The translations under genes were made by a program, and so were the position numbers. This document shows, piece by piece, positions 9,839 through 53,082 of a DNA stretch of 64,000 nucleotides. Every line of letters starts with the position of its first letter. Position 1 is the first letter of the stretch. Source of the stretch: a virus. The notes below the pieces were generated by a model that saw only the letters and a list, made by a program, of their open reading frames with translations, ran no database searches and had not been told where the DNA came from. The stretch lies in UHGV virus genome UHGV-0371537; one strand, 5' to 3'.

Positions 9839-11788
9839 ATGATTTCTCAATTCAATCAACCACGCGGCTCCACTTCCATAGAAGTTAACAAACAATCTAT
9901 CGCTCGAAATTTCGGTGTCAAAGAAGACGAAGTCGTTTATTTCACTGCTGGTATTGATCTCAGTGGATTTAAAGTAATTTATAATGAGTCTACCCAACGG
10001 GCTTATTCTCTTCCTTCAGGTATTGTTTCAGGAACGACTGCTGTTAGTCTTAGTGCTAACGCTGTTCTTATGCACTCAGCTGGTTCTATAGACCTCGGAG
10101 AATTAGCCGTATCTCGTGAAGAATACGTTACATTGCCTGGGTCATTCACCTCGGGTGCTACGCTTAATGTTAAAAATGAATTGCTTACCCATACAACAGG
10201 CAAGTATCGCTGGGACGGGGAATTTCCTAAAACCGTTTCTGCAGGTTCTACCCCTGAATCTGCTGGTGGTGTTGGTCCTAGTGCGTGGGTTAGTGTTGGT
10301 GTTGCTTCTTTAAGAGCAGACCTGGAAAAACCAACAGGGGCAGGATTGATTGGATTTGGCTGTTCTCCATATATAAATAGAAATATTGGAGATGTTCTCC
10401 AGGATATACCAACGAACAAATATTTTGGTGCAAAGTGTGATGGCGTAACTGATGATACTGTAGCTAACCAAACTGCACTTGATTGGTCTGCTGACAATAA
10501 AAGAGATGTTATTTTTGTTGGAAAAAGCTGCATAACAAGCAGACTTGTACACAATTCAGGCTCCAGGGTAACACATCTTGGAGAGATCAAACCTCGTGAT
10601 TTTTCTGATGATGTTGTTATTGAGGTAAAGGACGATGCGTGGCGTGATCCTTACAATGATGGAATAACAGCAATCGATACTGGCGATAGAGTTCATATTG
10701 ATGGTCTATGTATTGCCCCTGACTCTGTAATAGATGCTGTTGGTATTCTTGGCACTGATGGAGTGGATCCGATCATATCAAGATTAAGAACATTCAACAT
10801 GAGAAGGGGAGGAATTAAGATTGTTAAGGGGTATGGATGGAACATATCAAACATTTCAATCATTGCACCTTTTGATCAAAATAACTCTCATGATTATGCA
10901 GGAATTAGGCATGAAACGTCAGATTCATTTTATTCTAGCGTTATAGTTTCAGGATATACTACTGGACTTGATATGCCTGGAAATGCTAATCAAGTATCAA
11001 AGGCCCACTGCTGGGGAATGTCATTACCAGATAGAACCACTCGTAATATGTTATTCGGCCTTAAAATGAGCGGTAGTGGTAATAACGTAGTGCAATTCTA
11101 TTCTGATTCTCCTAAAAAAATTGATAAAACACAAGCTGCAAGCATTACAAATGGTGGGATTGGCTATGTAATTTCTGGTTTTAACAACACATTTTTATCA
11201 CCTAGGAACCTATCTCATCAGGATTGTGGCTTGAAATATGGTAAGGTTTTTCTGATATCTGGTTCTGAGAATACCTTTATTAGCCCCTTAATAGGTGATT
11301 ATGACTACATTGAAGATGATGGATTTTTCACATTTACAGATTCGGCAAGCCCGCTAAACAACTATGTTTATGGTGGCAACATGCAATCTACATATTTGTA
11401 CCCAATTGCAAGTGGTAGCTATAAACCAACTGTAAACATCCCATGCACATACAGCTCTCAAATATATAACCATAATATCATTCAGAAAAATGTTATGGGA
11501 AGAGTTGTTATTACATGCAATATTACAAGTAATTCATCCGACGATCCATTCTATATACAACTGCCACCTTATCTATCAGCTGTATCTGGGATGGCAAGTG
11601 GATCAATAATTAACAACCTTACATCGTCAGTAAGAGCTGATAGCAACCTTTTTGCAGTCGAACCTTATGTTTCAAATGGTAAAATCTACTTCCGTAGATT
11701 ATTTAGATCTGGAGCTGCTGATGATATAAAGCAAAATATGCTTAACACAGGTAATGCTTTCTTTGATATATCAATAAATGCAAGATAA
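9839..11788 (+). CDS. tailspike protein, short form (TSP3-like)
   Basis: N-terminal anchor domain shared with the other three tailspike genes; 649 aa. Confidence 0.8.
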   Translation: MISQFNQPRGSTSIEVNKQSIARNFGVKEDEVVYFTAGIDLSGFKVIYNESTQRAYSLPSGIVSGTTAVSLSANAVLMHSAGSIDLGELAVSREEYVTLPGSFTSGATLNVKNELLTHTTGKYRWDGEFPKTVSAGSTPESAGGVGPSAWVSVGVASLRADLEKPTGAGLIGFGCSPYINRNIGDVLQDIPTNKYFGAKCDGVTDDTVANQTALDWSADNKRDVIFVGKSCITSRLVHNSGSRVTHLGEIKPRDFSDDVVIEVKDDAWRDPYNDGITAIDTGDRVHIDGLCIAPDSVIDAVGILGTDGVDPIISRLRTFNMRRGGIKIVKGYGWNISNISIIAPFDQNNSHDYAGIRHETSDSFYSSVIVSGYTTGLDMPGNANQVSKAHCWGMSLPDRTTRNMLFGLKMSGSGNNVVQFYSDSPKKIDKTQAASITNGGIGYVISGFNNTFLSPRNLSHQDCGLKYGKVFLISGSENTFISPLIGDYDYIEDDGFFTFTDSASPLNNYVYGGNMQSTYLYPIASGSYKPTVNIPCTYSSQIYNHNIIQKNVMGRVVITCNITSNSSDDPFYIQLPPYLSAVSGMASGSIINNLTSSVRADSNLFAVEPYVSNGKIYFRRLFRSGAADDIKQNMLNTGNAFFDISINAR

Positions 11789-23959: not shown

Positions 23960-24676
23960 CTAAATACCTTCAAACGTATTTCTGATAAATTCGATAATAC
24001 GACTTTCATGTTTAAACCATTCAGTCGCACCGTCAAATCCCTTGTAGTTCATACTAAATGACATTTCATGAGCCTTTCTTTCCAGTTCTAACACGAATTG
24101 TCCATCATTTGACTTAAAAACTTCTAGAACATTGAACTCAAATGGAGTTGATCTTCTTAAAGATTTAAATCTATTATTTGGTGAATTGGACACCCCGATT
24201 TTCATACAGCCTTCTTCGCTGGTCAATATGTACAAATAACCGACTTTAAAAGGATTGTATCCGGAAGTTGCGCAGTAGGGGCACCAACTTTTACCATTCA
24301 CCAAATTACAGTATCTTGACTCCCAACGATGTCCTTCTGAACATTCCATAAGGCAAACTGTCACATTATCTTTATACTTTCCACCAATAAATTCTATGAA
24401 TTTACCACCGTTGGTTTCAGCATGGTCGGTTATTCTCTTTTTAGATTCTTGCTGGGTATTTCTCTTGTTGCCATTACATGTTGGGCACCAACTGCCTTTA
24501 TTGATCAAATTTCCATAAGATGCTGAACTCCATTGATGCCCTTCACCACACTGTAATATACATTTTGTCTGATTAGTGATAAATTTATCACCAACGAATC
24601 CCTGGAACAAACCACCTTTAGATAAGGCATATTTGTGAAGATTTTGAATAGCAGTTTCTTCTGTCAGGATTTTCAT
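23960..24676 (-). CDS. T5orf172 (GIY-YIG superfamily) domain protein with two N-terminal zinc ribbons; homing-endonuclease-like
   Basis: Two repeats C-x4-C..GH.W....C.L.N.KSWCP.C then GYLYIL....MKIGVSN....R..SLRR.....EWF, typical of T5orf172/MUG113; opposite strand between two neck genes. Confidence 0.65.
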   Translation of the reverse strand: MKILTEETAIQNLHKYALSKGGLFQGFVGDKFITNQTKCILQCGEGHQWSSASYGNLINKGSWCPTCNGNKRNTQQESKKRITDHAETNGGKFIEFIGGKYKDNVTVCLMECSEGHRWESRYCNLVNGKSWCPYCATSGYNPFKVGYLYILTSEEGCMKIGVSNSPNNRFKSLRRSTPFEFNVLEVFKSNDGQFVLELERKAHEMSFSMNYKGFDGATEWFKHESRIIEFIRNTFEGI

Positions 24677-35786: not shown

Positions 35787-35838
35787 AACTACTAAGTAAT
35801 TTCAACTTAACTGAATATCAATGTAAGGAATGAGCATC

Positions 35839-37161
35839 ATGGCTAAGAAACTTGTAACCGAAGAAATGCGCAAAGAGTGGCTGCCTGTTCTTCAAAAAGA
35901 ATCTGAACAGATCCAGCCTCTGTCTGCCGAAAACGTCGCTGTCCGTCTCCTGGAAAACCAGGCTGAGTGGAACGCCAAAAACCTGGGTGAATCCGAAGCC
36001 CCTGGCTCTCTGAACAACACTGTCGGTAAATGGCAGCCAGTTCTGATTGACATGGCTAAACGTCTGGCTCCGATCAACATCGCGATGGACTTCTTCGGCG
36101 TTCAGCCGCTGTCTGGTCCTGACGGTCAGATCTTCGCACTGCGTGCTCGCCAGGGCGTTGCAGATAGTTCCAACACCGCGCAGTCTCGTAAAGAACTGTT
36201 CATGCAGGAAGCTGATTCCGGCTACTCTGGTGACGGTACTGTACAGGCTGGCGACCCATCTGGCTTTACCCAGGCTGAAATCGAAGGTTCCGGCGCTGGT
36301 ACAACCACCATCGGTAAAGGTATGCCAAGCACCGACGCTGAACTGCTGGGTACTACCACCAACCCATGGGCGCGTGTTGGTATCACCGTGCAGAAAGCTA
36401 CCGTGACTGCGAAGTCTCGCGGCCTGTACGCTGACTACAGCCATGAGCTGCGCCAGGACATGATGGCGATTCACGGCGAAGACGTGGACAGCATCCTGTC
36501 TGACGTGATGGTCACTGAAATTCAGGCGGAAATGAACCGTGAGTTTATCCGCACCATGAACTTCAGCGCAGTACGCTTCAAAAAATTCGGCGCAAACGGC
36601 ATCGTGGACATCTCCACCGATATCTCCGGTCGTTGGGCTCTGGAAAAATGGAAGTACATGACTTTCATGCTGGAAGTTGAAGCGAACGGTATCGCCGTTG
36701 ACACCCGTCGTGGTAAAGGGAACCGTGTTCTGTGTTCTCCGAACGTAGCATCTGCCCTGGCGATGTCCGGCATGCTGGATTACGCTCCGGCGCTGCAGGA
36801 AAACACCAAGCTGGCGATCGACCCAACTGGCCAGACCTTCGCTGGTGTTCTGTCTAACGGCATGCGCGTTTACATCGACCCGTATGCAGTAGCAGAGTAC
36901 ATCACCCTGGCATACAAAGGCGCGACCGCGCTGGATGCTGGTATCTTCTTCGCGCCGTATGTGCCGCTGGAAATGTACCGCACCCAGGGTGAAACCACCT
37001 TCAGCCCACGTATGGCGTTCAAGACCCGCTACGGGATTTGTGCTAACCCATTCGTTCAGATCCCAGCGAACCAGGATCCACAGGTCTATGTGACTGCGGA
37101 TGGTATCGCCCAGGACAGCAACCCTTACTTCCGTAAAGGGTTAATAAAAGGCCTGTTTTAA
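35839..37161 (+). CDS. gp23: major capsid protein, T4 gp23-like
   Basis: GVQPLSGPDGQIFALRA, KTRYGICANPF and C-terminal YFRKG resemble T4 gp23; ATG 35839 preferred over 35830 on SD spacing. Confidence 0.9.
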   Translation: MAKKLVTEEMRKEWLPVLQKESEQIQPLSAENVAVRLLENQAEWNAKNLGESEAPGSLNNTVGKWQPVLIDMAKRLAPINIAMDFFGVQPLSGPDGQIFALRARQGVADSSNTAQSRKELFMQEADSGYSGDGTVQAGDPSGFTQAEIEGSGAGTTTIGKGMPSTDAELLGTTTNPWARVGITVQKATVTAKSRGLYADYSHELRQDMMAIHGEDVDSILSDVMVTEIQAEMNREFIRTMNFSAVRFKKFGANGIVDISTDISGRWALEKWKYMTFMLEVEANGIAVDTRRGKGNRVLCSPNVASALAMSGMLDYAPALQENTKLAIDPTGQTFAGVLSNGMRVYIDPYAVAEYITLAYKGATALDAGIFFAPYVPLEMYRTQGETTFSPRMAFKTRYGICANPFVQIPANQDPQVYVTADGIAQDSNPYFRKGLIKGLF

Positions 37162-37190
37162 TAATTAAAACAATGGCTTACGTCCTAACA

Positions 37191-37220
37191 AACCCCGCTT
37201 CGGCGGGGTTTTTGTTTGTT
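37191..37220 (+). terminator. rho-independent terminator after the major capsid gene, third exact copy
   Basis: AACCCCGCTTCGGCGGGGTT followed by TTTGTTTGTT. Confidence 0.75.
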
Positions 37221-37268
37221 CATAATACCAAACAGGTTATACTAGATACCATACGAAGGAGAACAATT

Positions 37269-38741
37269 ATGTATCAGGTAATCTGTAGTGTCTGTCATGA
37301 ACAGTTCAAAGCATCCAGGAAAGATAAGAAATTTTGTTCAGATGGTTGTAAAACGTTTTCTAGCAACACATTGAAAAATCTATCACCGGAATTTGTTGCT
37401 GATGCGACGTGCCTTTCGGATGAAGAATCTTATCGTCAATTTTTCCATAAACACATGTTCACTAAGAACAATAAATTGGATATTCAGAAATGCAAATCTA
37501 ATTTGTTAATGAAGCACATCAGATTGGACCTGTTGATATTTGCCAACGCCCATAACACCCTACAAGATCTGGCCTGTAAAGTCACAGCATGGTTACACAA
37601 TAGAACCGTGAAAATGTGCCCTGTGTGTTCCAAAGAAACCAACTTTTACATCAATGACAAAGATTACAGAACATATTGTTCCGAAGAATGTTATCAGATT
37701 TCTATGTGTAAAGGCGGGGTTGGTCGGAAAGCTATAGAGGCTTCAAATATATCCAAATATGGGAGCTGCTCTACACTACAACTACCTGGTGTGAGGAAGA
37801 AGGCGTTGATAACATTACAAGAACGTTATGGTGTTGACAATCCCATGAAAAACTCGATCATATTGAAACGTGCATTGTTTAACAATGGTTCTGTCAGGAA
37901 TAAGAAATCTTCTTATGAAAAAGAAATATCCGAGTTCCTCACCTCAATAGGAGTTGTGAACAAGGTTTCTAATTACAGTATATTGTCAGGCAAACAATTG
38001 GATATCTACTGCCCGGAACACAAACTTGCAATAGAATTCAATGGGTTGTACTGGCATTCAGAAGTTTTTAAAGAAAAACGGTATCATCTAGAAAAGACTG
38101 AAATGTGTGAATCTCAGGGTATCCAGTTGATCCATATTTGGGAAGACGAATGGGCTGAGAAACAGGATGTGGTCAAATCTCTTCTGAAGGCAAAACTCGG
38201 CATTAAAACGCCTGTCTCATACGCTCGCCAACATAAAGTTGTTTGGGGTAATATAAACGGTGTGAGGGAGTTTCTAGACGCCCATCATATACAAGGTTCC
38301 GTGTCGTCCACCCACCACTTATCGCTAATTGATAAGGCTGGTGTGATACAGGCCGTGATGTTGTTTACCAAAAGGAAAGATGGCCTGGAATTAGTCAGAT
38401 TTGCCTCTAATGATTGCCACGGGGCGTTCAGTAAACTTCTATCGCACTTCAGAAGGAAATTTGTTGGTGTCCCAATCTATTCTTTTGGCGACAGGTGTGT
38501 CGTAAGCAGGCTGTCGAACATTTACCTATCCCACAGGTTCATAGAAGAGGAAGTACAGAAGCCGGATTACAAATATCACAAGCCTGGTACATTTATGCGT
38601 GAGCACAAGTTCGGTTTCAGAAAAGATTCATTTGCTCGGATGGGTTATGACATAGAAGGCAAAACAGAAAGCCAGTTAGCAACCGAAGCCGGGCTGGTCA
38701 GGATTTGGAATTGTGGTCTGATCAAATATACCTTGAACTAA
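37269..38741 (+). CDS. freestanding homing-endonuclease-like protein with zinc fingers and a Vsr-like PD-(D/E)xK domain
   Basis: LAIEFNGLYWHSE matches the Vsr/DUF559 signature; CxxC/CxxxC clusters at the N-terminus; track start 37173 would read through the terminator at 37191. Confidence 0.65.
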   Translation: MYQVICSVCHEQFKASRKDKKFCSDGCKTFSSNTLKNLSPEFVADATCLSDEESYRQFFHKHMFTKNNKLDIQKCKSNLLMKHIRLDLLIFANAHNTLQDLACKVTAWLHNRTVKMCPVCSKETNFYINDKDYRTYCSEECYQISMCKGGVGRKAIEASNISKYGSCSTLQLPGVRKKALITLQERYGVDNPMKNSIILKRALFNNGSVRNKKSSYEKEISEFLTSIGVVNKVSNYSILSGKQLDIYCPEHKLAIEFNGLYWHSEVFKEKRYHLEKTEMCESQGIQLIHIWEDEWAEKQDVVKSLLKAKLGIKTPVSYARQHKVVWGNINGVREFLDAHHIQGSVSSTHHLSLIDKAGVIQAVMLFTKRKDGLELVRFASNDCHGAFSKLLSHFRRKFVGVPIYSFGDRCVVSRLSNIYLSHRFIEEEVQKPDYKYHKPGTFMREHKFGFRKDSFARMGYDIEGKTESQLATEAGLVRIWNCGLIKYTLN

Positions 38742-40551: not shown

Positions 40552-40974
40552 ATGAAGAAGTATATCGTTGTCATCACTGGTTCCCGCTCAATTACCGAGC
40601 GGGATAAGGTCTTCGCCAAGCTGGATGAACTCCTCGATCCTCATGAAGTCTACACATTGATCGAGGGTGAGGCCAATGGTGTGGACAAGATTTGTCGCGA
40701 TTGGGCTGAAATCAATTATGTTGATGTCACTCCTATGCCGATCCCATCGGGCTATTATGAAAAATATGGCAAAGGGATGGGCAACAAACGCAATCAGGAC
40801 ATGTTAGACAAGGCATTGGATCTCGCTAGGCAGACTAAGCTGGAGGTGTATCCGATTGCGATGTGGGATGGTTCGTCCACTGGCACCCTGGACATGATAA
40901 ACAGGCTGAAGAAGGCAGGTCTCCCTGTGGATATCACTCTGATGGGTAAACCCAAAACCAAGCGCCTTTTGTAA
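40552..40974 (+). CDS. SLOG/DprA-like Rossmann-fold protein (140 aa)
   Basis: VVITGSRSI...GEANGVDK...W resembles the GSR...G..G.D signature of SLOG/DprA/LOG-type domains; ATG 40552. Confidence 0.4.
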   Translation: MKKYIVVITGSRSITERDKVFAKLDELLDPHEVYTLIEGEANGVDKICRDWAEINYVDVTPMPIPSGYYEKYGKGMGNKRNQDMLDKALDLARQTKLEVYPIAMWDGSSTGTLDMINRLKKAGLPVDITLMGKPKTKRLL

Positions 40975-41221: not shown

Positions 41222-41950
41222 ATGAACGCACAGATCTATGACGCCCTTGAGCAGGGTAACGCATTTAACAATCCTCTCCCGTCCCTCAGCAGCACGTCAC
41301 AGGGTTTAATCACCAGTGGTAAGGCGACTACAGCTTCACTGGCTAACACAGGCGATACGCAAATCCAGGGCGCTCTGACGGCAGGTGGGCTTACCACAGC
41401 CAAACTGAACGAAGCAACCACTATGTTCAACTCTGCAGGTACGAGCCTCACCACCCTGAACAACTATGGTGACCAGACTGTCAGTGAAGCATATTCTCGG
41501 ATCGGGACTTCTGTTTCTTACAAATCTGGCCTGAAATCCATAGAGCGCGAGCCAACGAATTGTGATCTGATCAACAATGCATTCGGTGTCATTCAGACCC
41601 TTGGACGCCAGTGGATCGGTGCCATGGAGACCGCTCTCAGCACTGTCACGGCAAAAATGACCGAACTAGCCGAATTAGTAGCGCAGGGTGTGAGCGCAGG
41701 CCTGGCAAAGATCCAGGCGCTGGCTGCTGAGGTCACCGGGTACGTCAACACTGCCATAACTCAGGTCTCCCAGATAGCCCAGGATATTACGAGCGGTATC
41801 GCGGCAGAGCTAGCCCACATACAAGACATGGTTAGCAAGTGTCTGAACTTCTCATTTGCTAACGTCCTGTCTGAGTGGGCTAAAGATCTATGTGCTGGTG
41901 GTGTTATCAACAACATCGGTTCAGATAATCTCAAGAGTGCGCTGAAGTAA
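41222..41950 (+). CDS. late-expressed hypothetical protein (242 aa), possibly structural
   Basis: CTAAATA at 41187 followed by a perfect 12-bp hairpin; Ala/Thr/Ser-rich. Confidence 0.55.
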   Translation: MNAQIYDALEQGNAFNNPLPSLSSTSQGLITSGKATTASLANTGDTQIQGALTAGGLTTAKLNEATTMFNSAGTSLTTLNNYGDQTVSEAYSRIGTSVSYKSGLKSIEREPTNCDLINNAFGVIQTLGRQWIGAMETALSTVTAKMTELAELVAQGVSAGLAKIQALAAEVTGYVNTAITQVSQIAQDITSGIAAELAHIQDMVSKCLNFSFANVLSEWAKDLCAGGVINNIGSDNLKSALK

Positions 41951-42592
41951 TCAACGCTCCCTCGCCGGAAGAACTCCCACTGGCTCGATACCATCCAACA
42001 GTAGGGAGTTCACACCCACATTACTCAGTCTAATCCAGATCGTTCCCCCTGGGTTAACTTCAAAGATATTCATCTCATTCCCAACTGCGTCGTTGTTGAC
42101 AAACACACCCTGGGTTGCGATTCGTACTGGTTTATCTGAGTCATTCATGATTTTGAACGTCACGATTATATCCGATGTTGTACCCAGTCGCCCAACCATG
42201 TGTTGCTTCAGCTTGGCGTAGAATGATGGATTAAAAGTGATGATAATGCTGTTGTTCTGAGAGTAATAAATACTTGCTGATAGGTATGGAATCTTCCCTT
42301 CGTCGCCACGCCGCAGGAGGGGAATCGTGGTCTTCCAGTAAGGCTTGAGGGTGCTCGTGTTCTCCTCGAAGCAACCTAAAGGTACGAGCTTCTGGAAGGT
42401 CTGGAACTCTTGCACGATGATGTCCAGAATACCCTTGTTACAAGTGGGAACACTGGCCGACAACGTCACAGGTACGGTGCGTACTTCTGGGTTCCAGAGT
42501 TCGGAAACAGAAATTATTGGCGTGACAAAGATGCGACAGCTCGTGAGTAAGAGCATCGCGCATGCCAACAACAATCTACTGATCCCGCGCAT
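41951..42592 (-). CDS. putative lipoprotein (213 aa)
   Basis: MRGISRLLLACAMLLLTSC gives a signal peptide with LTSC lipobox; convergent with the 41222 gene; start at internal ATG fwd 42590-42592. Confidence 0.5.
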   Translation of the reverse strand: MRGISRLLLACAMLLLTSCRIFVTPIISVSELWNPEVRTVPVTLSASVPTCNKGILDIIVQEFQTFQKLVPLGCFEENTSTLKPYWKTTIPLLRRGDEGKIPYLSASIYYSQNNSIIITFNPSFYAKLKQHMVGRLGTTSDIIVTFKIMNDSDKPVRIATQGVFVNNDAVGNEMNIFEVNPGGTIWIRLSNVGVNSLLLDGIEPVGVLPARER

Positions 42593-42630
42593 CAGGGTCA
42601 CAAAATATCTCCACAGCAAAAGGTGCTATT

Positions 42631-43131
42631 ATGTCCGACGTACAATTCAAGAACGAAAACCCTAATTTTGCGGCGTCCGATAAGTGGCGTTTATCTATCG
42701 GAGACCTTGTACTCGTGTCCCGCAACATCCATGACTTCAGCATCCCTGGCTTGTATTCCGAGGGTATCGATGGTCCATCACCCGGTGACGTTCTCGTTTC
42801 CATATCTTCAGAACGTATCACATATGACCCCGTCGTATTTACTTTCGTAATCGATGAGGACTGGAAAACTTGGTTGGCGTTACACAACTGGATCCGCTCA
42901 AACGTCAAGCTGGACCAGCCTGTGAGCAAAGACATCACAATTGACTTGCTGGACAACCTCAATCGCCCCATCGGGCTGACTTTGGTGTTACAAGAATCAC
43001 GCCCAACTGCTCTTGACAACGTGTTGGTAGACGTGGATGCTGCTGTGCCTCAGCTGGTGTCGACTGTGACGTTCAAATTCCAGGAGATGGTGCCGACTCT
43101 TGTGAGCCGTGAGATAGATTCTAATCCGTGA
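42631..43131 (+). CDS. hypothetical protein (166 aa)
   Basis: ORF upstream of the UvsY-like gene. Confidence 0.5.
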   Translation: MSDVQFKNENPNFAASDKWRLSIGDLVLVSRNIHDFSIPGLYSEGIDGPSPGDVLVSISSERITYDPVVFTFVIDEDWKTWLALHNWIRSNVKLDQPVSKDITIDLLDNLNRPIGLTLVLQESRPTALDNVLVDVDAAVPQLVSTVTFKFQEMVPTLVSREIDSNP

Positions 43132-43173
43132 TGCGCGGTATAATTTTATGACATTGACAAGCTGGGATATTTT

Positions 43174-43626
43174 ATGAAAGAACAACTACAGACAATGGCA
43201 ACCGAGGATATCATGGACGAACTGGAGCCGCTGATAACAGTGGACCCAGAAGACATGAACCTTGACCAGATATCATTGAAGATTGGGCGCTCATGGATGG
43301 CCGTGCAGCGCCATTATCTGCGTGAAGGGCGTTATCTGGAATTCCTCAATGGACGCTTCCGGCAGATTGATCTTTACCTGCGCCGCTACTATGCAGGGGA
43401 GTTGCCACCGAATATCTATGCAGAACGCCCCCTGAAGGTTCGCCCCCTGAAGTCCGACCTGGACACATGGGTGAAAGCCGACGAAGACTATGTAGAATTG
43501 TCCGTTCTGCTACAAGAGCAGAAGGCAAAGGTCAAGTTTATTGAGACTTGTTTGGATCGTTTGAACAAGCTCGGCTACGAAGTGAAGAACGCCATAGATT
43601 GGCGTAAATACATGGATGGTTCATGA
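43174..43626 (+). CDS. uvsY: recombination mediator, T4 UvsY-like
   Basis: LYLRRYYAGE and C-terminal region resemble T4 UvsY; same module as the UvsW-like helicase. Confidence 0.55.
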   Translation: MKEQLQTMATEDIMDELEPLITVDPEDMNLDQISLKIGRSWMAVQRHYLREGRYLEFLNGRFRQIDLYLRRYYAGELPPNIYAERPLKVRPLKSDLDTWVKADEDYVELSVLLQEQKAKVKFIETCLDRLNKLGYEVKNAIDWRKYMDGS

Positions 43627-44372
43627 TGGCATCTCTCCAGGCTCTCAGAAAGCTGAACGACTTCGAAAATCGTCACTACACATTCCAGCAGTATGAACTC
43701 CCATACAAAGAACTGGAGTGTGTGACGACGGAGAATGGTCGACATTATGTGTCTCCGACTGGCGTCAAACTCACGTCTGTCACAACGATGCTGGGTCGAA
43801 CCGGAGACCATGAATGGCTCGAAGCCTGGAGGGAGAAGTTGGGCGCAGAGGCCGCCGATCTTGAGACCATGCGTTGTGCGGAACGTGGGGAGAAGCTGCA
43901 TCTTGCGTGTGAATTGTATTTGAAGAACCGCCCAATGAAAGAAGTGCTCGAGGCGGCTGGTGAATACATGTTCATGTTCAAGCAACTCTTCCCATACCTG
44001 AACAAGATGACCAAGATCTATGCTCAGGAGATTCCATTATATAGCGAAGTCCTTGGCCTCGCTGGGCGCGTAGACCTCATCGGGGTGTATGAGGGCAAAC
44101 CAGCCATAATCGACTTCAAGACCTCCAATGTAATGAAGACTCGGGGTATGATTGAGGACTACAGCATCCAGCTGTGTCTATACTCAGTCATGTTCCAACA
44201 GATGTTCGGCGTGAAGATCACCCGGTTGATAAACGTCATCGCCAACGAATCCTCTTTGAACCCAACTATCATCGAGTTCCATCGTGATGACATCCTGAGC
44301 AAGATGTTTGAGCGTGTCCGCCTGTACCATCGCATGGATAAAGAACAGAACGGAGTCTGGGCGAACCACTAA
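43623..44372 (+). CDS. PD-(D/E)xK nuclease-like protein (249 aa)
   Basis: GRVDLIGVYEGKPAIIDFKTS fits a D...(D/E).K core; sits between UvsY-like and UvsW-like genes. Confidence 0.45.
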   Translation: MMASLQALRKLNDFENRHYTFQQYELPYKELECVTTENGRHYVSPTGVKLTSVTTMLGRTGDHEWLEAWREKLGAEAADLETMRCAERGEKLHLACELYLKNRPMKEVLEAAGEYMFMFKQLFPYLNKMTKIYAQEIPLYSEVLGLAGRVDLIGVYEGKPAIIDFKTSNVMKTRGMIEDYSIQLCLYSVMFQQMFGVKITRLINVIANESSLNPTIIEFHRDDILSKMFERVRLYHRMDKEQNGVWANH

Positions 44373-44375
44373 ATA
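44369..44375 (+). promoter_or_regulatory. late-promoter-like CTAAATA motif upstream of the UvsW-like gene
   Basis: CTAAATACCCCAT inside the 3-prime end of the upstream gene, 26 nt before ATG 44401. Confidence 0.4.
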
Positions 44376-44400
44376 CCCCATATATCTTGGGAGATTTTGT

Positions 44401-45909
44401 ATGGCAGACGTTCAGATTGTTAAGGTTAACGAAGTCCGCATGCGTTGCATCGCAGATCTTTCTATCAGGGAAGAGCTGAACGATTACTTCAAATTCGAAG
44501 ACCCCAATTACACACCAAATCCATTCTCGAAATGGGATGGAATCGTTCGCCTTTTCACCAAGTCGTCCGGCCTCATCGATATCGGTCTCCTGTTCGAGGT
44601 TTTTAAATTCTGTAAGCATCACGGATACACAGTTGAATTGGACCCGGCGCTGAAGTACATACAGGACATCCCTGATGAAGAGATCTATGAATTCATCAAC
44701 AGCCTACACGCCAAAGTACGTACAGAAAATCATGAGTACATCGATGCGATCACCCGTGATTACCAGTTCGACACGATAGCCAAGGCGATGCGTCAAACCA
44801 GATGCGTCTGCGAACTGGCTACGAGTGCCGGGAAGTCCTTTGTTCTGTATGTCATGGCGCGGTACTACAGGCAACGCAGAGAAGCCCTAGAAAGCAATCT
44901 GAGGACGCTTATCGTGGTGCCGTCAATCCACCTGGTTACACAGCTGTACGACAACTTCGAAGAATACTCCCACGGCACTGACTGGAAGCCAGTTGTCCAC
45001 ACTCAGCTGATCTTTGAGGGGGCAACCAAGAACATCACCAAGCCGATTGTCATCAGTACCTGGCAGGGCATACAAGACCAACCGAAGGAGTGGTTCCACC
45101 AGTTTGGCGACATCGTTGTGGATGAAGTACATACATCCAAGTCCGAGAAGCTGTCCTACATCCTCAACAATTGTATCTACGCCGACCAGCGTCTGGGCGT
45201 GACGGGTACGCTGGCAAACACCAAAGTCGCTGGGCTTCAGGTGGTGGCTCACTTCGGCACTTATCACAAGATCATCACGGCTCGCGACCTTATCAATCTT
45301 GGGTACGCCACTGACATCAAGGTCAAGATGATCGAGCTGAAGCACACCATCGCTGACGCAATGACTCTTGACGGGGAGTACAGCAAGGAAATTGAATATC
45401 TTATCACCCATCAGTCGCGAAACGAAGTGATTGCGAAGATGGCGCTGAACCTCAAGGGGAATGTTGCTGTTATGTTCGAGCGTATTGACGCCCACATGAT
45501 GGTAGTGTATGAGATGCTGAGCGCAGTAAAGCCAAACGTGTTTGTCATCAACGGTGAAGTGAAGATCGAAGATCGTCGACGCATTCAGAAAGCGATGGAA
45601 GATGGCGAGGATATCACGTTGCTGGCTTCTTACGGGACAATGCAGCAGGGTGTTTCAATCAAGAAGTTGCATCACCTGGTACTGGCCCACCCGAGCAAGT
45701 CATATATCCGTGTCATACAGACATTGGGTCGTCTGATGCGTCAGCACTCCTCTAAGGATGTGGCATGGATCTGGGACTTAGTCGACAATGCGTCGTATAA
45801 AGGATCCCAGAACCACGCTGTGAGGCATTCGCAAGAGCGATACAAGTTCTATCTGTCTGAGCGCCACCCAGTAGAATTCATGAAAGTGGCGCTCGGTAAT
45901 CACGATTGA
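44401..45909 (+). CDS. uvsW: DNA/RNA helicase, T4 UvsW-like
   Basis: Walker A LATSAGKS, DEVH box, TWQGIQDQPKEWFHQFG and KKLHHLVLAH resemble T4 UvsW; 502 aa from ATG 44401 (track start 44308). Confidence 0.85.
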   Translation: MADVQIVKVNEVRMRCIADLSIREELNDYFKFEDPNYTPNPFSKWDGIVRLFTKSSGLIDIGLLFEVFKFCKHHGYTVELDPALKYIQDIPDEEIYEFINSLHAKVRTENHEYIDAITRDYQFDTIAKAMRQTRCVCELATSAGKSFVLYVMARYYRQRREALESNLRTLIVVPSIHLVTQLYDNFEEYSHGTDWKPVVHTQLIFEGATKNITKPIVISTWQGIQDQPKEWFHQFGDIVVDEVHTSKSEKLSYILNNCIYADQRLGVTGTLANTKVAGLQVVAHFGTYHKIITARDLINLGYATDIKVKMIELKHTIADAMTLDGEYSKEIEYLITHQSRNEVIAKMALNLKGNVAVMFERIDAHMMVVYEMLSAVKPNVFVINGEVKIEDRRRIQKAMEDGEDITLLASYGTMQQGVSIKKLHHLVLAHPSKSYIRVIQTLGRLMRQHSSKDVAWIWDLVDNASYKGSQNHAVRHSQERYKFYLSERHPVEFMKVALGNHD

Positions 45910-46277
45910 TCTTGGTTCACATAGGCGGGGGTTGCCTCGCCTTCTTCACCCGCTGCGCCGAACAATTTGTCCAAAGAAGCCAGGCACTGAGAATTCAGAT
46001 GTTCACTAATCGTGTCTTTCAACGTTCGTTCGCTGTCTAATTTGAACGGCAACACCTTCGCTTCAATGCCGTTTTCAAAGGTGACAACGCCGATGTACAG
46101 ACCAACTTTCATGCCTGTCATCAAGCCAAGAGGCACAAAGCGCGGCTCCGATGGTAAGTTCTTGTCTGACGCCAGCTGTGCCAGATAAACTGGAGTTCCG
46201 GTAACAAACTCTCCTGCGGTGAGGATGGCATCTGGCTTGCTGCATCCCACTGCGTACAATCCTACAAACTGTTTCAT
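45900..46277 (-). CDS. hypothetical protein (125 aa)
   Basis: Minus-strand ORF divergent from the sliding clamp gene. Confidence 0.45.
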   Translation of the reverse strand: MKQFVGLYAVGCSKPDAILTAGEFVTGTPVYLAQLASDKNLPSEPRFVPLGLMTGMKVGLYIGVVTFENGIEAKVLPFKLDSERTLKDTISEHLNSQCLASLDKLFGAAGEEGEATPAYVNQDQS

Positions 46278-46404
46278 ATATTACTCTCGTGTGTTGGTTA
46301 ACCTGACATACATATTATTTCGCGCCCATGTTTAGACCAAATTAAATTATTTTGCTGTTGAATAAAAACTGCTTTCTTGTTGAACAACTGGCGTGGTATT
46401 ATAC

Positions 46405-46620: not shown

Positions 46621-47289
46621 ATGCAAGAGATCACTCTCTCCGAACGTACACTTCAGTTGCTGGCCAACTTTGAGACCATCAACCCTTCTATCGTTCTGAC
46701 ACCGGGTAAAATGCTGCGCAGCATCAACGATTCTTCTACTGTGATTGCCGTGGCGCAGATCGAAGAAGACTTCCCGTTTGAGTTCCCTATCCTGGACCTG
46801 ACAAAGCTCCTGGCCATCCAGCGCCTGCCTTCCTTCAAAGGCGGTAAAGCCGAATTCCATCAGGACTACATCCTGCTGAAAGGTGAAAGCTCTCAGTTGC
46901 AGTTCTGGCGCTCTGCGAAGGAACTCACTGTTGTCCCGGCTGACACCATCGAACTGCCGTCTGTCGACTTCGAAGCGATCATCACTCCAGAAAAGATGAA
47001 AGAACTGACCCGCGCCTGTTCTACCCTCGGCCACAAGACCGTGCGCCTGGTTGCTCAGGGTGGCAAAACTCGCTTGGTTGCAACTACCACTACCCTGGAC
47101 AACTCTAACAACTACACCGTTGAGCTGGGTGAAACTGCTCTGCCGGACTTCGTCATGCCGCTGGACGTTGCCAACCTGAAGATGATCGAAGGCAACTATA
47201 CTCTGCGCGCCTGTGCAGAACTGCAGATGGTCAACTTCCAGTCCTCCGACGCGACGATCAATTACTTCGTCGGCGCACAGATTGAGTAA
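46621..47289 (+). CDS. gp45: sliding clamp, T4 gp45-like
   Basis: N-terminal LQLLANFETINPSIVL resembles T4 gp45; precedes the clamp loader. Confidence 0.8.
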   Translation: MQEITLSERTLQLLANFETINPSIVLTPGKMLRSINDSSTVIAVAQIEEDFPFEFPILDLTKLLAIQRLPSFKGGKAEFHQDYILLKGESSQLQFWRSAKELTVVPADTIELPSVDFEAIITPEKMKELTRACSTLGHKTVRLVAQGGKTRLVATTTTLDNSNNYTVELGETALPDFVMPLDVANLKMIEGNYTLRACAELQMVNFQSSDATINYFVGAQIE

Positions 47290-47368
47290 TCAATCTCCAG
47301 CCTGATGCTATAATGTGTGGGCGGGGGTTTCCCGCCCATTTGAAATGATTCTTCTACAAGAGGCTGAA

Positions 47369-48025
47369 ATGAGGAATCAACCGTTTGTATATCATTTGTT
47401 AGGAAAGGATGGTTCTTTCTATTTTGGTTCTAGAACGAAATTGGGTGCGCATCCTTTACAATTGTTCACTTCGTATTTCACTTCTTCACAAACGGTCAAG
47501 GAAATCATATCTAAGAAAGGTTCTGATTTCTTTGATGTGATATTTGTAGAATTGTTCGACTCTCCAGAAGATGCATATTGGAGAGAGCAGCAGTTGATTA
47601 GTGAGAACATTGATCACCCAAAATGTTTAAACAAATCATTTCAACCACTGGGTTGTGGTATCGCCAACGGTAGGTCAGCGGGACCCAAACATCACCGAGT
47701 TGGTGTCTCGAGTTGGTTGAAGGGTAAGTCTGGGAATCTTCATCCCATGCACGGAAGAACTGGTAAAAGCCACCCCGCCGCAGGAATAAAACCCTGGGAC
47801 ACCGGGGCTGCGCTGCTACACAACACCAGACCGATGTGGTTAAAGGCTGGGGTAGTGTATGATCACTGGGTTTCTACTGGTGATGGGTGCCATAGAATTG
47901 CCCGTTTGTTCTCTATCAAAGAGAACACCGCAACGAGTATGTTAAACAAATTCAAAGAGGGCTGGAACCCGTATGATGACGACGCTTGGGTTCTGTTCTG
48001 TAAACTATATCATGGAAATACATAA
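47369..48025 (+). CDS. GIY-YIG homing endonuclease (Seg-like)
   Basis: FVYHLLGKDGSFYFGSRT is a GIY-YIG core; NUMOD-like HPMHGRTGKSHP; ATG 47369 with GAGG SD; inserted between clamp and clamp-loader genes. Confidence 0.7.
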   Translation: MRNQPFVYHLLGKDGSFYFGSRTKLGAHPLQLFTSYFTSSQTVKEIISKKGSDFFDVIFVELFDSPEDAYWREQQLISENIDHPKCLNKSFQPLGCGIANGRSAGPKHHRVGVSSWLKGKSGNLHPMHGRTGKSHPAAGIKPWDTGAALLHNTRPMWLKAGVVYDHWVSTGDGCHRIARLFSIKENTATSMLNKFKEGWNPYDDDAWVLFCKLYHGNT

Positions 48026-49014
48026 TGTCTAATATCACGATTGTAAAAGACCAGTACGCTTGGGAGAACCGTTTCCGCCCTGACAACCTTGATGAGATTA
48101 TCATCCCTCAAGACGTCCGTGCTAAAATCCATGGCTACATTACCAGTGGCAACGGTAACATTCCTTCCATGCTGTTTTACTCCCCTCAGCCTGGTACTGG
48201 TAAAACCACCTCTGCCCTGGCTGTGTGCAACGAGATCGGTTGTAAACAACCCCTGATGATCAACGCATCCCTGGACAACAGCATTGATGTTATCCGTGAT
48301 CGCGTGATTCAATACTCTACTGGCGTGAGTGTATTCGGCGGTCGCAAAGTCGTTATCCTCGACGAAGTGGAGCGCCTGTCTATGGCGGCGCAAGAATCCC
48401 TGAAGGGTATTGTAGAGAAGGTCTCCAAGAACTGCTCGTTCATCCTGACCACCAACGCCAAGCAACGCGTGAACGAACCTTTGCGATCTCGTTGCCGTGA
48501 AATCGACTTCATCTGGAACGAGCAGGAAGCACTGGAAGTTCAGAACAAGTTCTGTTTGCGTTGCGTTGAAATCCTCCGCGCCGAAGGTGTTGAGTTCGTT
48601 CCCCAGGTTCTGGCTGCTATCGTTAAGCGCCATTTCCCCGATAATCGCCGCATTATGGGCACCCTGCAGGATAACGTCACCACCTATGGCAAGATTGACG
48701 AACGCGCCCTGGCTGTCTTGAAAGCGGCTGACCTTGGTACTCTGGTCGGCATGCTGAAAGCCAATGACTGGGCTGGTATGAAGCAGTGGGTGACTGACAA
48801 CCAGAACTACATCACAGAAGACTTCTATTCTCGCTTCTTCCAGTTCTGTGTACCGCAAGACAAAGAGAAGCCGATGATGGTTCAGAACGAGTCCATCCCA
48901 GACCTGGTCTGCGTCTGCGGCCAGTCACAAATCGAACATCGTCAGGTGGGTGATGTGTGGCTTCACGCCGTTTATTTCCTGACCAACGTCATGCTCAACA
49001 TTAAGTGGAAGTGA
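48025..49014 (+). CDS. gp44: clamp loader large subunit, T4 gp44-like
   Basis: Walker A SPQPGTGKTT, VVILDEVE Walker B and SRC motif resemble T4 gp44. Confidence 0.9.
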   Translation: MSNITIVKDQYAWENRFRPDNLDEIIIPQDVRAKIHGYITSGNGNIPSMLFYSPQPGTGKTTSALAVCNEIGCKQPLMINASLDNSIDVIRDRVIQYSTGVSVFGGRKVVILDEVERLSMAAQESLKGIVEKVSKNCSFILTTNAKQRVNEPLRSRCREIDFIWNEQEALEVQNKFCLRCVEILRAEGVEFVPQVLAAIVKRHFPDNRRIMGTLQDNVTTYGKIDERALAVLKAADLGTLVGMLKANDWAGMKQWVTDNQNYITEDFYSRFFQFCVPQDKEKPMMVQNESIPDLVCVCGQSQIEHRQVGDVWLHAVYFLTNVMLNIKWK

Positions 49015-50893: not shown

Positions 50894-52093
50894 ATGAAAG
50901 ATAAAGCCCTGGACGTCCCGTACTGCGGTGTCCGCGAAGAAAAGATAAAGTCGGCCAAACCGGTTCTCAGTCCGACCCATACCCGCCTGTCTTATGACTG
51001 GATGAGCGAGCGCTATAAGATCCACGTTCGAAAGGACGTCCAGCGTCTTCCTGCTCCTTGGACGAATAATCCTATACTACGGCAGGTCAAGTTCTGTAAC
51101 GTCCGGAGAGAGCACGACAGGCAGTCTCTTAACCTGATCAACAACATCGTCAACAACGATGCTCTGGGTATGGCAGACAAGATGTTTAACTGCGTGCTGT
51201 TCCGCATGTTCAACCTCTGGGATCCGATCCAGGCTATCGGCGGCGCGATGACGATCAAAGAATTCGCCAAGATTAATCTTGACGCAACCCGTGAACGACT
51301 TCAGAAGTTCGAGGCTGACGGTGGTAAGGTATTCACCAATGCCTTCAACACAGGCGGCCTGAAGCAATGCCTGGCTTTCCCTGAGATGGTTGTCAACCAC
51401 AAGGAGCAGCTCTTCGGTGGGATGATGGTGAAAGTGTATCGCGTTGGCCAGGGTATTGTGGACGAGATGGACTACAAGGTCGCCAAGAAGCTGGTCGAAG
51501 AGAATCCTGGTGAATATACCATCGAGGGATGGGAACCGTACATGCCAATGCGTGTCATCCGTTCCCTGAAGGCATTCGTCAACAAGTATCCAAATTACTT
51601 CCATGACCTGCTGCGCCTTGGTACTCCTCTGGAAGTATACCAGCGCATGTACGACGACATCGAAGGGCTTGGTCCATTCCTGGCTTATCAGATCTGGGTG
51701 GACTTCACGTACATTCCTGAGTATCCGTTTAGTGAGAACCACTTCACGGTTGCTGGACCAGGCTGTCGTGCAGGCATCGACCTGATGTTCCTGAACAAAG
51801 ACGGTATGACCCACGAAGAATGCATCTTCTGGTTACGGGACAACCAGGACGCAGTGTATTCCCAATATGGATATGTTCGTGAGCAATTCTGGTCTGCGGA
51901 AGAGCCTTGGGATCAGTGTATGAATGTTCAACAATTAGAAAACCACTTTTGTGAATTGTCGAAATATACCCGTTGTGTAGAGGCTTTACAGCAAGGTAAA
52001 AAACCGCGCGGGAAGGTTGGATACGATGGGGAAGGACAACCTAAAGCGGCGACATCTGGTTCTAAAAACCTACTAAATTTATTTAAAAAGTAA
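50894..52093 (+). CDS. hypothetical protein (399 aa)
   Basis: Long ORF; no motif recognised by eye. Confidence 0.5.
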   Translation: MKDKALDVPYCGVREEKIKSAKPVLSPTHTRLSYDWMSERYKIHVRKDVQRLPAPWTNNPILRQVKFCNVRREHDRQSLNLINNIVNNDALGMADKMFNCVLFRMFNLWDPIQAIGGAMTIKEFAKINLDATRERLQKFEADGGKVFTNAFNTGGLKQCLAFPEMVVNHKEQLFGGMMVKVYRVGQGIVDEMDYKVAKKLVEENPGEYTIEGWEPYMPMRVIRSLKAFVNKYPNYFHDLLRLGTPLEVYQRMYDDIEGLGPFLAYQIWVDFTYIPEYPFSENHFTVAGPGCRAGIDLMFLNKDGMTHEECIFWLRDNQDAVYSQYGYVREQFWSAEEPWDQCMNVQQLENHFCELSKYTRCVEALQQGKKPRGKVGYDGEGQPKAATSGSKNLLNLFKK

Positions 52094-52152: not shown

Positions 52153-53082
52153 ATGTTTTACGAATTATTGATTTCTAAAGGCGGTAAACCGCATTTTATC
52201 AAGAAGTATTTGAGGATGGTTCAATCTTTCAAATATTCTGATAGTGACTACACTGAATTACACCACATCCTTCCCAAGAGCATGTTCCCTGAATATTCTA
52301 AAGATAAGATAAATTTGGTTCGATTAACAGGCAGACAACATTATCTTGTCCATGTATGCTTGGCCTTGGCTTTCCCAAACACGAGAATGGTGTATGCTGT
52401 TGTAGCTATGAGAAAGGGAGGAAGAAGAAATAAATCAGGTATTCGGTTTAATTCTCATTTGTATGAAAGTTTCAGAATTAAATTCAGCGAACAACTATCT
52501 TTACAATGGAAAGGGGTTTCTCGGTTTGTGGGTAAAGACAACCCAATGTATGGGAGAAGAGGAAAGAATAATCCCCAATATGGGTATAAGAGAACTCCAG
52601 AGCAAGTCAAGAAAATTACCAAAGGATTGATGAAAATCCATGAAAGGATGGCTTCTGATCCGGAATATAAAAGAGAAGTTTTAGAGCAGCGTCGTACCAA
52701 TACGGATTTAAAGCAATTTTCTGAGCGTTCCCGCCAAGCAAAACTCGGTGAACTCAATCCTAATTATGGGAAGGACTTAACCAACTCTTTCACACCGGAA
52801 CAACGCGCCAAACAGAAAGAAAACGCTCAGAAAGGCATGTTGGCTAAGATGCCTTGGGAGAAGGGTAAATGGAACCCCGACAATGACGTATATTGGGAGA
52901 AAGCTGATCAATTCCTTGAAGCCCTGAATACGATGAAACGTTCAGAAGCCCTCTTGTTCGTGTATGGAACAAAAGATCTGAAGGCGTTTAATGCCACCAG
53001 TGGGATAATCGAACGTTTCAATAAAGGCTGGGAACCATTAAAATGCGTAAAATGGTTAAAAAGATATAAGGGTGAAAAATGA
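52153..53082 (+). CDS. HNH homing endonuclease
   Basis: ELHHILPKSMFPEYSKDKINLVRLTGRQHYLVH is an HNH core; repeated NP.YG(R/K) NUMOD-like motifs. Confidence 0.7.
   Translation: MFYELLISKGGKPHFIKKYLRMVQSFKYSDSDYTELHHILPKSMFPEYSKDKINLVRLTGRQHYLVHVCLALAFPNTRMVYAVVAMRKGGRRNKSGIRFNSHLYESFRIKFSEQLSLQWKGVSRFVGKDNPMYGRRGKNNPQYGYKRTPEQVKKITKGLMKIHERMASDPEYKREVLEQRRTNTDLKQFSERSRQAKLGELNPNYGKDLTNSFTPEQRAKQKENAQKGMLAKMPWEKGKWNPDNDVYWEKADQFLEALNTMKRSEALLFVYGTKDLKAFNATSGIIERFNKGWEPLKCVKWLKRYKGEK

Follow-up and report, generated by a model that had tools for sequence, protein, structure and literature searches.

The 64,000-nucleotide stretch of phage DNA considered here (UHGV virus genome UHGV-0371537, hereafter the window) carries, between positions 43174 and 45909, a set of three open reading frames (ORFs) on the same (+) strand which encode, in order, a UvsY-type recombination mediator, a nuclease of 249 amino acids and a UvsW-type helicase. 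The window derives from a phage of the family Ackermannviridae, Aglimvirinae/Agtrevirus-like in its affinities. As judged from sequence profiles and a predicted structure, the middle protein is a small, single-domain exonuclease of the RecB family of PD-(D/E)xK nucleases, akin to the human mitochondrial enzyme MGME1 (mitochondrial genome maintenance exonuclease 1, also known as Ddk1 or C20orf72). It probably trims the ends and flaps of single-stranded DNA (ssDNA) during recombination-dependent replication and repair, from within a gene block that is conserved across the Ackermannviridae; its substrate, its polarity and any cooperation with UvsY and UvsW are inferred, the first two by homology.

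The sequence-only reading of this region had proposed a putative PD-(D/E)xK core for the product of the middle gene (43623–44372, +), and this assignment stands. In a search against profile families, the 249-residue protein matches Pfam PF12705 (PDDEXK_1) with an E value of 3.8e-7 and a score of 30.7 bits, the gathering score being 22, and it matches PHROG 298, a family labelled ‘exonuclease’, with an E value of 3.4e-85. From the 90 homologues collected, 31 were aligned, spanning 85% down to 30% identity, and in this alignment W69, H93, E97, E136, D151, D164, F165, K166, Y180, Q183 and Y187 are invariant. The set of motifs expected of RecB/RecE-type nucleases is therein complete, comprising motif V (His), motif I (Glu), motif II (Asp), motif III (D-x-K) and motif IV (QxxxY). 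In other words, the catalytic triad whose loss had been put forward as the point on which the assignment might fail (D151, D164 and K166) is wholly retained. An AlphaFold2 model of the nuclease built on this alignment has a mean predicted local distance difference test (pLDDT) of 94.4 and a predicted template modelling score (pTM) of 0.89.

Within the wider superfamily, the structural relative that emerges is MGME1. Compared as a single sequence with the Protein Data Bank (PDB), the nuclease finds human MGME1 only, with an E value of 0.003; when the profile of the phage family is used in its place, the E value of human MGME1 becomes 1e-25, over profile positions 32–224 of 225, and the next match, the Cas4 protein SSO0001, lies at 0.31, such that MGME1 alone is significant. 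Foldseek searches of the PDB with the predicted model agree, in that ranks 1 to 9 are all occupied by MGME1 entries (E values of 1e-12 to 5e-11, template modelling scores of 0.62–0.84), after which come, far behind, RecE at 3e-5, EXO5, Cas4, Dna2 and AddAB. At the level of individual residues, H93, E136, D151, D164, K166, Q183 and Y187 of the phage protein align with H180, E223, D238, D251, K253, Q271 and Y275 of MGME1; the spacing between the first four of these is the same in both proteins (43, 15 and 13 residues), while the interval from D251 to Q271 is one residue longer in MGME1 than its phage equivalent. The MGME1 residues constitute its active site, and substitutions at four of them (H180Q, D238N, D251N and E223Q) lower its activity (PMC3597694, PMC6237815). 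In addition, W69 aligns with W152 of the helical arch of MGME1, and helices 64–73 and 75–100 of the predicted model, which bear W69 and H93, respectively, have their counterparts in the helices of MGME1 that bear W152 (alpha2) and H180 (alpha3). As modelled, the phage protein thus has the fold of MGME1, complete with an arch of two helices that spans the active site.

The comparison with MGME1 (PDB entries 5ZYU, 5ZYT, 5ZYV, 5ZYW and 8XA9) shows likenesses and differences. Both are single-domain RecB-type proteins with cores of similar size, they have an N-terminal PSVT-like motif in common, and neither contains the cysteines of an iron–sulphur (Fe–S) cluster. On the other hand, animal MGME1 proteins possess a targeting or unstructured N-terminal region of about 100 residues (PMC3597694) which is absent from the phage protein, while the phage nuclease has an N-terminal extension of its own, of about 30 residues, that is specific to the Ackermannviridae. 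The genomic setting differs too, the phage gene being virally encoded and lying beside uvsY and uvsW. As for other members of the superfamily, RecE, lambda exonuclease and Cas4 share with the phage nuclease the catalytic core and motifs II, III and IV, but their Foldseek matches to it are much weaker, at 3e-5 to 7e-3. RecE and lambda exonuclease are, moreover, toroidal oligomers which act on the ends of double-stranded DNA (PMC3597694, PMC6237815).

Membership of the Cas4 family was considered and rejected. The score against the curated model TIGR00372 is 32.9 bits, where the cut-off is 65, and the match covers the core only. The Fe–S cluster of Cas4 is held by four cysteines, and these are absent from the phage protein. 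Indeed, no column of the 31-sequence alignment has a conserved cysteine, the maximum being 19 of 31 at a position where the protein from the window has leucine; because of this lack of conservation, a cluster of the Cas4, AddB or Dna2 type is ruled out. A scan with the PADLOC defence models gave just weak matches to Cas4 and DruK at the level of the superfamily (E values of 1e-8 to 1e-3), and identity with a defence-system protein was rejected on account of the weakness and superfamily-level nature of that similarity. The same matches are the sole point in favour of a counter-defence function, in which the enzyme would destroy ssDNA or DNA-end immune signals or effectors of the host, such as the multicopy ssDNA of retrons, or would process ends against attack by RecBCD-like enzymes. 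The shortfall of the Cas4 score and its confinement to the catalytic core speak against such a function, as does the contrast between the strict conservation of this gene, in a setting of core replication genes, and the habits of anti-defence genes, which are typically variable and accessory in their placement. Counter-defence is, all told, very improbable.

The arrangement in which the nuclease gene resides is the standard one in essentially all Ackermannviridae. A megablast comparison of positions 42600–46300 returned 204 phage records, 192 of which hold the entire block. Yersinia phage CAU_YEP3 heads them with 89.4% identity, and the hosts represented are Salmonella, Dickeya, Escherichia, Klebsiella, Shigella, Serratia, Erwinia, Enterobacter and Yersinia. 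The records listed are either Ackermannviridae or not yet classified, and all of those checked for taxonomy are Ackermannviridae. In CAU_YEP3, Shigella phage Ag3 and ChubbyThor, the annotated order runs lipoprotein (−), gp3, uvsY, exonuclease, uvsW, small ORF (−), gp45, gp44, gp62 and regA. The nuclease is about 96% identical in amino acid sequence to its orthologues in Ag3 and CAU_YEP3, which lie at equivalent positions. The synteny that had been suggested as a check on the sequence-only reading is, moreover, retained in the Vibrio members of the family, the distant phages K356 and GR28A (Campanilevirus) keeping the order gp3–uvsY–exonuclease–uvsW–gp45–gp44–gp62–regA with a nuclease of 43–46% amino acid identity.

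The ratio of nonsynonymous to synonymous substitution rates (dN/dS) was determined for all three genes. With respect to CAU_YEP3 it is 0.058 for the nuclease, 0.051 for uvsY and 0.020 for uvsW; with respect to Ag3 the values are 0.022, 0.009 and 0.058, respectively. Purifying selection on the nuclease gene is therefore strong, and comparable to that on its two neighbours.

These observations bear directly on a suggestion of the sequence-only reading, that the nuclease might be another selfish endonuclease, which would here mean a homing endonuclease, encoded by a gene of its own, which had moved in between uvsY and uvsW. In favour of such an origin, homing endonucleases of the PD-(D/E)xK type do exist, uvsY abuts uvsW in cyanophages and Menderavirus, which implies insertion or relocation of the gene in an ancestor of the Ackermannviridae, and homing endonuclease genes do settle in this same stretch in relatives of the phage. 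Thus, ChubbyThor has a GIY-YIG-like homing endonuclease gene (PHROG 314) between uvsY and the nuclease, and SW16-7 has an HNH homing endonuclease gene (PHROG 953, E value of 1e-72) between the nuclease and uvsW; SP-9-14, with an extra ~0.6 kb as in SW16-7, probably also has an HNH gene at the latter junction. No homing endonuclease gene of the ChubbyThor or SW16-7 type is found at either border of the nuclease gene in the window. These sporadic insertions nevertheless belong to families other than that of the nuclease, which occupies one and the same site in practically all Ackermannviridae, the Vibrio genera included, and has dN/dS values of 0.02–0.06. Pfam and PHROG searches detect no GIY-YIG, HNH, LAGLIDADG, NUMOD or accessory DNA-binding domain in it, and it has the fold and the motifs of an exonuclease. 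The selfish reading is contradicted by this distribution, selection, domain content and MGME1 fold, and was rejected as scarcely credible. The other suggestion of that reading, a repair nuclease, is compatible with the evidence.

The position between uvsY and uvsW is not shared by all relatives of the gene. Kyanoviridae (ACG-2014d) and Menderavirus (Ps15) carry the series gp3–uvsY–uvsW–x–gp55–gp47–gp46, with uvsW directly after uvsY, and the nuclease homologues of such phages lie elsewhere: that of cyanophage S-H38 is within the series PhoH–exo–gp33–gp59–gp32, and that of Menderavirus IME-SM1 is between gp61 and gp32. Because uvsY and uvsW are contiguous there and the nuclease is placed elsewhere, its position in the window is an old, Ackermannviridae-specific relocation, while an association with replication and recombination genes is the more general trait. 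In T4-related phages, uvsY and uvsW are neighbours located 3′ of gp3, as in the cyanophage gp3–uvsY–uvsW–gp55–gp47–gp46 block, and in T4 itself the order is uvsY, uvsY.-1/uvsY.-2, uvsW. The Ackermannviridae differ from T4 and the cyanophages in having the exonuclease gene intercalated and coupled to uvsY, and in having gp55, gp47 and gp46 at other sites.

The S-H38 locus also lends itself to a different account of the enzyme, that is, as an agent of nucleotide salvage which mainly breaks down host DNA, or linear and damaged DNA, into single nucleotides or short oligonucleotides for use in phage DNA synthesis, much as MGME1 clears linear fragments of mitochondrial DNA. There, the homologue adjoins PhoH and lies 1.2 kb 3′ of thymidylate synthase; furthermore, MGME1 participates in the degradation of linear mitochondrial DNA (PMC6584726, PMC11002302). 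Host and phage DNA would in principle be distinguishable by a nuclease, as hypermodified bases replace thymidine in the Ackermannviridae; the window encodes a 5-hydroxymethyldeoxyuridine (5-hmdU) DNA kinase. Set against this account is the location of the Ackermannviridae gene, coupled to uvsY and flanked by two recombination genes. In T4, host DNA is degraded for salvage by DexA and gp46/gp47, and the present phage family has these enzymes; moreover, an enzyme acting on ssDNA ends could degrade double-stranded host DNA only with the help of a helicase or an endonuclease. Salvage is, on balance, an unlikely primary role.

The identities of the two flanking genes are secure, and in both cases agree with what had been proposed from the sequence. 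The uvsY gene (43174–43626, +), put forward as encoding a UvsY-like mediator, specifies a recombination mediator of 150 residues whose product matches Pfam PF11056 with an E value of 1.1e-11 and 45.7 bits (cut-off 22.8), over profile positions 13–127 of 128, and PHROG 231 with an E value of 2e-44; T4 UvsY is its sole sequence match in the PDB, a weak one (E value of 0.096). The start codon is ambiguous, since the ATG at 43174 is preceded by a weak GGGA and the ATG at 43213, which gives 137 residues, has a better GAGGA five bases 5′ of it; the gene is annotated with 137 residues in CAU_YEP3 and with 150 in Ag3 and ChubbyThor. For uvsW, the ORF list begins at a TTG codon at 44308, whereas the ATG at 44401, which stands behind a Shine–Dalgarno sequence GGGAGA (44388–44393, +) 7 nucleotides 5′ of it, yields the 502 residues of the UvsW-like helicase proposed earlier (44401–45909, +). 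This is a superfamily 2 RNA–DNA and DNA–DNA helicase with UvsW_N, ResIII and Helicase_C domains, the first of which (PF21241) scores 32.2 bits where the cut-off is 25.3. It matches the crystal structure of T4 UvsW (2oca) by phmmer with an E value of 4.1e-74 over residues 11–470, and its motifs I, II and VI align with those of the T4 protein (ATSAGKS/PTSAGRS, VDEVH/NDECH and QTLGRLMR/QTIGRVLR, respectively). Within the block the two genes have opposite closest relatives: compared over 43213–45909, the product of uvsY is 98.5% identical to that of Ag3 and 88.3% identical to that of CAU_YEP3, while UvsW is 91.2% identical to that of Ag3 and 97.4% identical to that of CAU_YEP3. The block is, in this sense, a mosaic, which suggests recombination between Agtrevirus-like lineages within or near the nuclease gene.

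Expression of the nuclease appears to be tied to that of UvsY. In the window the start codon of the exonuclease gene overlaps the stop codon of uvsY (tcATGATGg), and because of this overlap the exonuclease would be made together with UvsY; the two genes are, as read from the junction, translationally coupled. A second ATG at 43626 would give an exonuclease of 248 residues. The overlap amounts to 1 nucleotide in CAU_YEP3, Ag3 and GR28A and to 31 nucleotides in K356. Upstream of uvsY, the 42-nucleotide spacer that separates it from the gp3-like gene (43132–43173, +) is more highly conserved than the adjacent coding DNA and contains a perfect TATAAT at 43139–43144 as well as the weak GGGA ribosome-binding site. 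From TATAAT to ATG (43139–43173), just two positions vary across four phages, where the coding DNA differs by 10–17%, and the sequence GTATAATT occurs once only in the window, at 43138. The spacer is a possible promoter for the three genes uvsY, exo and uvsW. Set beside this, a sigma-70 scan returned 2 sites, where shuffled sequence gave 5.5, none of them 5′ of uvsY, and in consensus scans within the block neither sigma-70 promoters nor T4 late motifs nor terminators came up convincingly. The gp3–uvsY spacer lacks the T4 late motif TATAAATA, which is found once in the 64 kb, at 10372. Homologues of gp55 and gp33 are nevertheless encoded in the phage family, and the late promoters of the Ackermannviridae probably follow a consensus different from that of T4.

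From the relationship with MGME1, a working model of the enzyme can be drawn. A free ssDNA end would thread under the two-helix arch of the phage nuclease and be cleaved at a two-metal site formed by H93, D151 and D164, with K166, E136, Q183 and Y187 in supporting roles, such that activity should depend on a divalent metal ion (Mg2+). Within the phage replication system, the loading of UvsX and UvsY on ssDNA, together with unwinding or branch migration by UvsW of D-loops, R-loops and stalled forks, would be expected to leave ssDNA tails and flaps. Trimming of these, as strands invade, branches migrate and forks are restarted, is the probable role of the nuclease and the most economical one. 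It might possibly also remove flaps in the maturation of lagging strands, in the manner of MGME1 with Pol gamma.

The repertoire of Ag3 allows this last possibility to be placed in context. This phage has a replication and recombination set of the T4 type, in that it encodes gp43, gp45, gp44/62, gp41, gp61, gp59, gp32, ligase, UvsX, UvsY, UvsW and gp46/47, and in addition DexA, a RuvC-like resolvase and a 146-residue gene product of the RNase HI type, the gene for which adjoins gp55. The annotations of Ag3 include no RNase H of the T4 (flap endonuclease, FEN) type, and a tblastn search, of limited sensitivity since its single query was the T4-type RNase H of cyanophage S-H38, detected no such enzyme either in that phage or in the window, the best E value being 1.3. 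It is because none is annotated in Ag3 or detected there or in the window that a flap-removing role becomes possible for the nuclease.

The adjacency to a gene for a branch-migrating helicase could also evoke a resolvase which cuts Holliday junctions or other branched DNA. Uncharacterised RecB-family proteins of the restriction endonuclease fold in group 2 and 3 jumbo phages were proposed as possible junction resolvases by Iyer et al. in 2021 (PMC7824862), and two jumbo phages, PBECO4 and CBB, have homologues of the present nuclease, although membership of the Iyer et al. example in the MGME1-like family could not be confirmed. Ag3, moreover, already possesses its RuvC-like resolvase, and the closest structure to the nuclease is that of an exonuclease which is a monomer, threads ssDNA and has a helical arch, of which the tryptophan (W69, equivalent to W152) is invariant. 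A resolvase is, in the light of this, quite improbable; the trimming of ssDNA ends and flaps is the probable role and the reading retained here.

A number of considerations weigh against that reading. Human MGME1 is only ~17–21% identical to the phage protein, and the activity, polarity and substrate ascribed to the latter are extrapolated from the former. The searchable literature yielded no experiment on any phage member of this MGME1-like nuclease family. The proposed functions could be covered by other enzymes, namely gp46/gp47, DexA, RNase HI and the RuvC-like resolvase of Ag3. In cyanophages, T4-type RNase H and the MGME1-like exonuclease are both present, and because they have both enzymes, the exonuclease is not a simple substitute for FEN. 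A dedicated partnership with UvsY and UvsW is not a trait of the whole nuclease family, since the adjacency is confined to the Ackermannviridae. Lastly, the operon structure is inferred, as the promoter and terminator scans found none that was convincing; co-transcription of the three genes is plausible.

A more speculative extension, and a doubtful one, is that the Ackermannviridae lack a FEN RNase H altogether and employ RNase HI and the MGME1-like enzyme as a pair which matures lagging strands and recombination intermediates, comparable to RNASEH1 and MGME1 in animal mitochondria. On this proposal, the phage clade might have been the source of MGME1, and the family-specific coupling to uvsY would reflect a physical hand-off from UvsY to the exonuclease to UvsW. 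Were the pairing to be true, the clade would offer a tractable bacterial-virus model of MGME1; the conjectured use of such a pair, as in mitochondria, is the mildly interesting remainder of the analysis.

Much of what is described above is already known, in that the arrangement of the genes, the naming of the middle one as an ‘exonuclease’ and the kinship of MGME1 with phage proteins are all on public record, and little is new. RefSeq and many GenBank records label the gene ‘exonuclease’ within a block of UvsY, exonuclease and UvsW, and the Ag3 orthologue (orf00169) is annotated as similar to a putative exonuclease of Synechococcus cyanophage S-PM2. PHROG 298, which spans Ackermannviridae, T4-like cyanophages and other myoviruses, is the same family, and the gene in the window is another of its orthologues. 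The fold is a common one in phages, including Aeromonas phiA8-29, Delftia PhiW-14, Pseudomonas pf16 and Sinorhizobium phiM9, and one metagenomic viral protein with the same fold has already been named MGME1-like. In 2013, Szczesny et al. (PMC3597694) described MGME1 as related to exonucleases encoded by phages of cyanobacteria and proteobacteria. The literature found on phage MGME1-like enzymes and on the Ackermannviridae gene consists of genome reports and that 2013 paper, and no experimental characterisation of a phage member was found. What is gained is a sharper annotation, that of an MGME1-like, RecB-family ssDNA exonuclease, as opposed to a Cas4 protein, a restriction enzyme or a homing endonuclease, for a gene which is family-wide, strongly constrained and coupled to uvsY. 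A tractable phage could reveal the part that an MGME1-type enzyme plays in a T4-like replication and recombination system.

Homing endonuclease genes are found at several other sites in the window. The selfish PD-(D/E)xK nuclease of the window is not the 249-residue protein but the product of the gene at 37173–38741 (+), a homing endonuclease of 522 residues (PHROG 3339, E value of 5e-157) which has a PD-(D/E)xK domain of Vsr/DUF559/MTES_1575-like character at residues 240–340, as indicated by weak Pfam matches. The gene begins 11 nucleotides past that for the major capsid protein (35830–37161) and is missing at the equivalent position in CAU_YEP3 and Ag3; in Vibrio phage K356, a homing endonuclease gene likewise follows the major head gene. 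A GIY-YIG/SegE-like homing endonuclease gene (47315–48025, +, with a probable start at 47369; PHROG 314, E value of 5e-16, with weak Pfam GIY-YIG matches) lies between those for the gp45 sliding clamp (46621–47289) and the gp44 clamp loader (48025–49014). It is present in the same place in CAU_YEP3 and is not found in Ag3, where gp45 and gp44 are 82 nucleotides apart. Two further genes of this general type sit in patches of low guanine and cytosine content (0.43 in each case): 52153–53082 (+), which encodes a homing-endonuclease-like protein of 309 residues with a NUMOD3 motif (PHROG 655, E value of 2e-63) directly after the gene for the 5-hmdU DNA kinase (50894–52093, PF18723, E value of 4e-81), and 23960–24676 (−), the 238-residue product of which has a T5orf172/MUG113 domain (PHROG 681, E value of 2e-59).

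Immediately beyond uvsW, and convergent with it such that the 3′ ends overlap by 10 nucleotides, is a conserved ORF of 125 residues (45900–46277, −), which matches PHROG 4255 with an E value of 5.5e-48 and is without a match in Pfam, NCBIfam or PADLOC. Ag3, ChubbyThor and SW16-7 have this ORF too, while CAU_YEP3 has a shorter ORF at the equivalent place which is labelled ‘clamp loader subunit’, probably a mis-annotation. On the other side of the block, the gp3-like gene for a tail completion or sheath stabiliser protein (42631–43131, +; PHROG 45 ‘tail tube’, E value of 3e-31), the counterpart of which bears the label gp3 tail completion in the genomes of CAU_YEP3, Ag3 and ChubbyThor, is an upstream anchor for synteny and stands outside the recombination function. 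Further upstream are three genes conserved in the family, encoding a YspA/SLOG-family protein (40552–40974, +; PF10686), a DUF7217 protein (41222–41950, +; E value of 6e-98) and a DUF7424 protein (41951–42619, −); CAU_YEP3 annotations call the last two structural and a lipoprotein, respectively.

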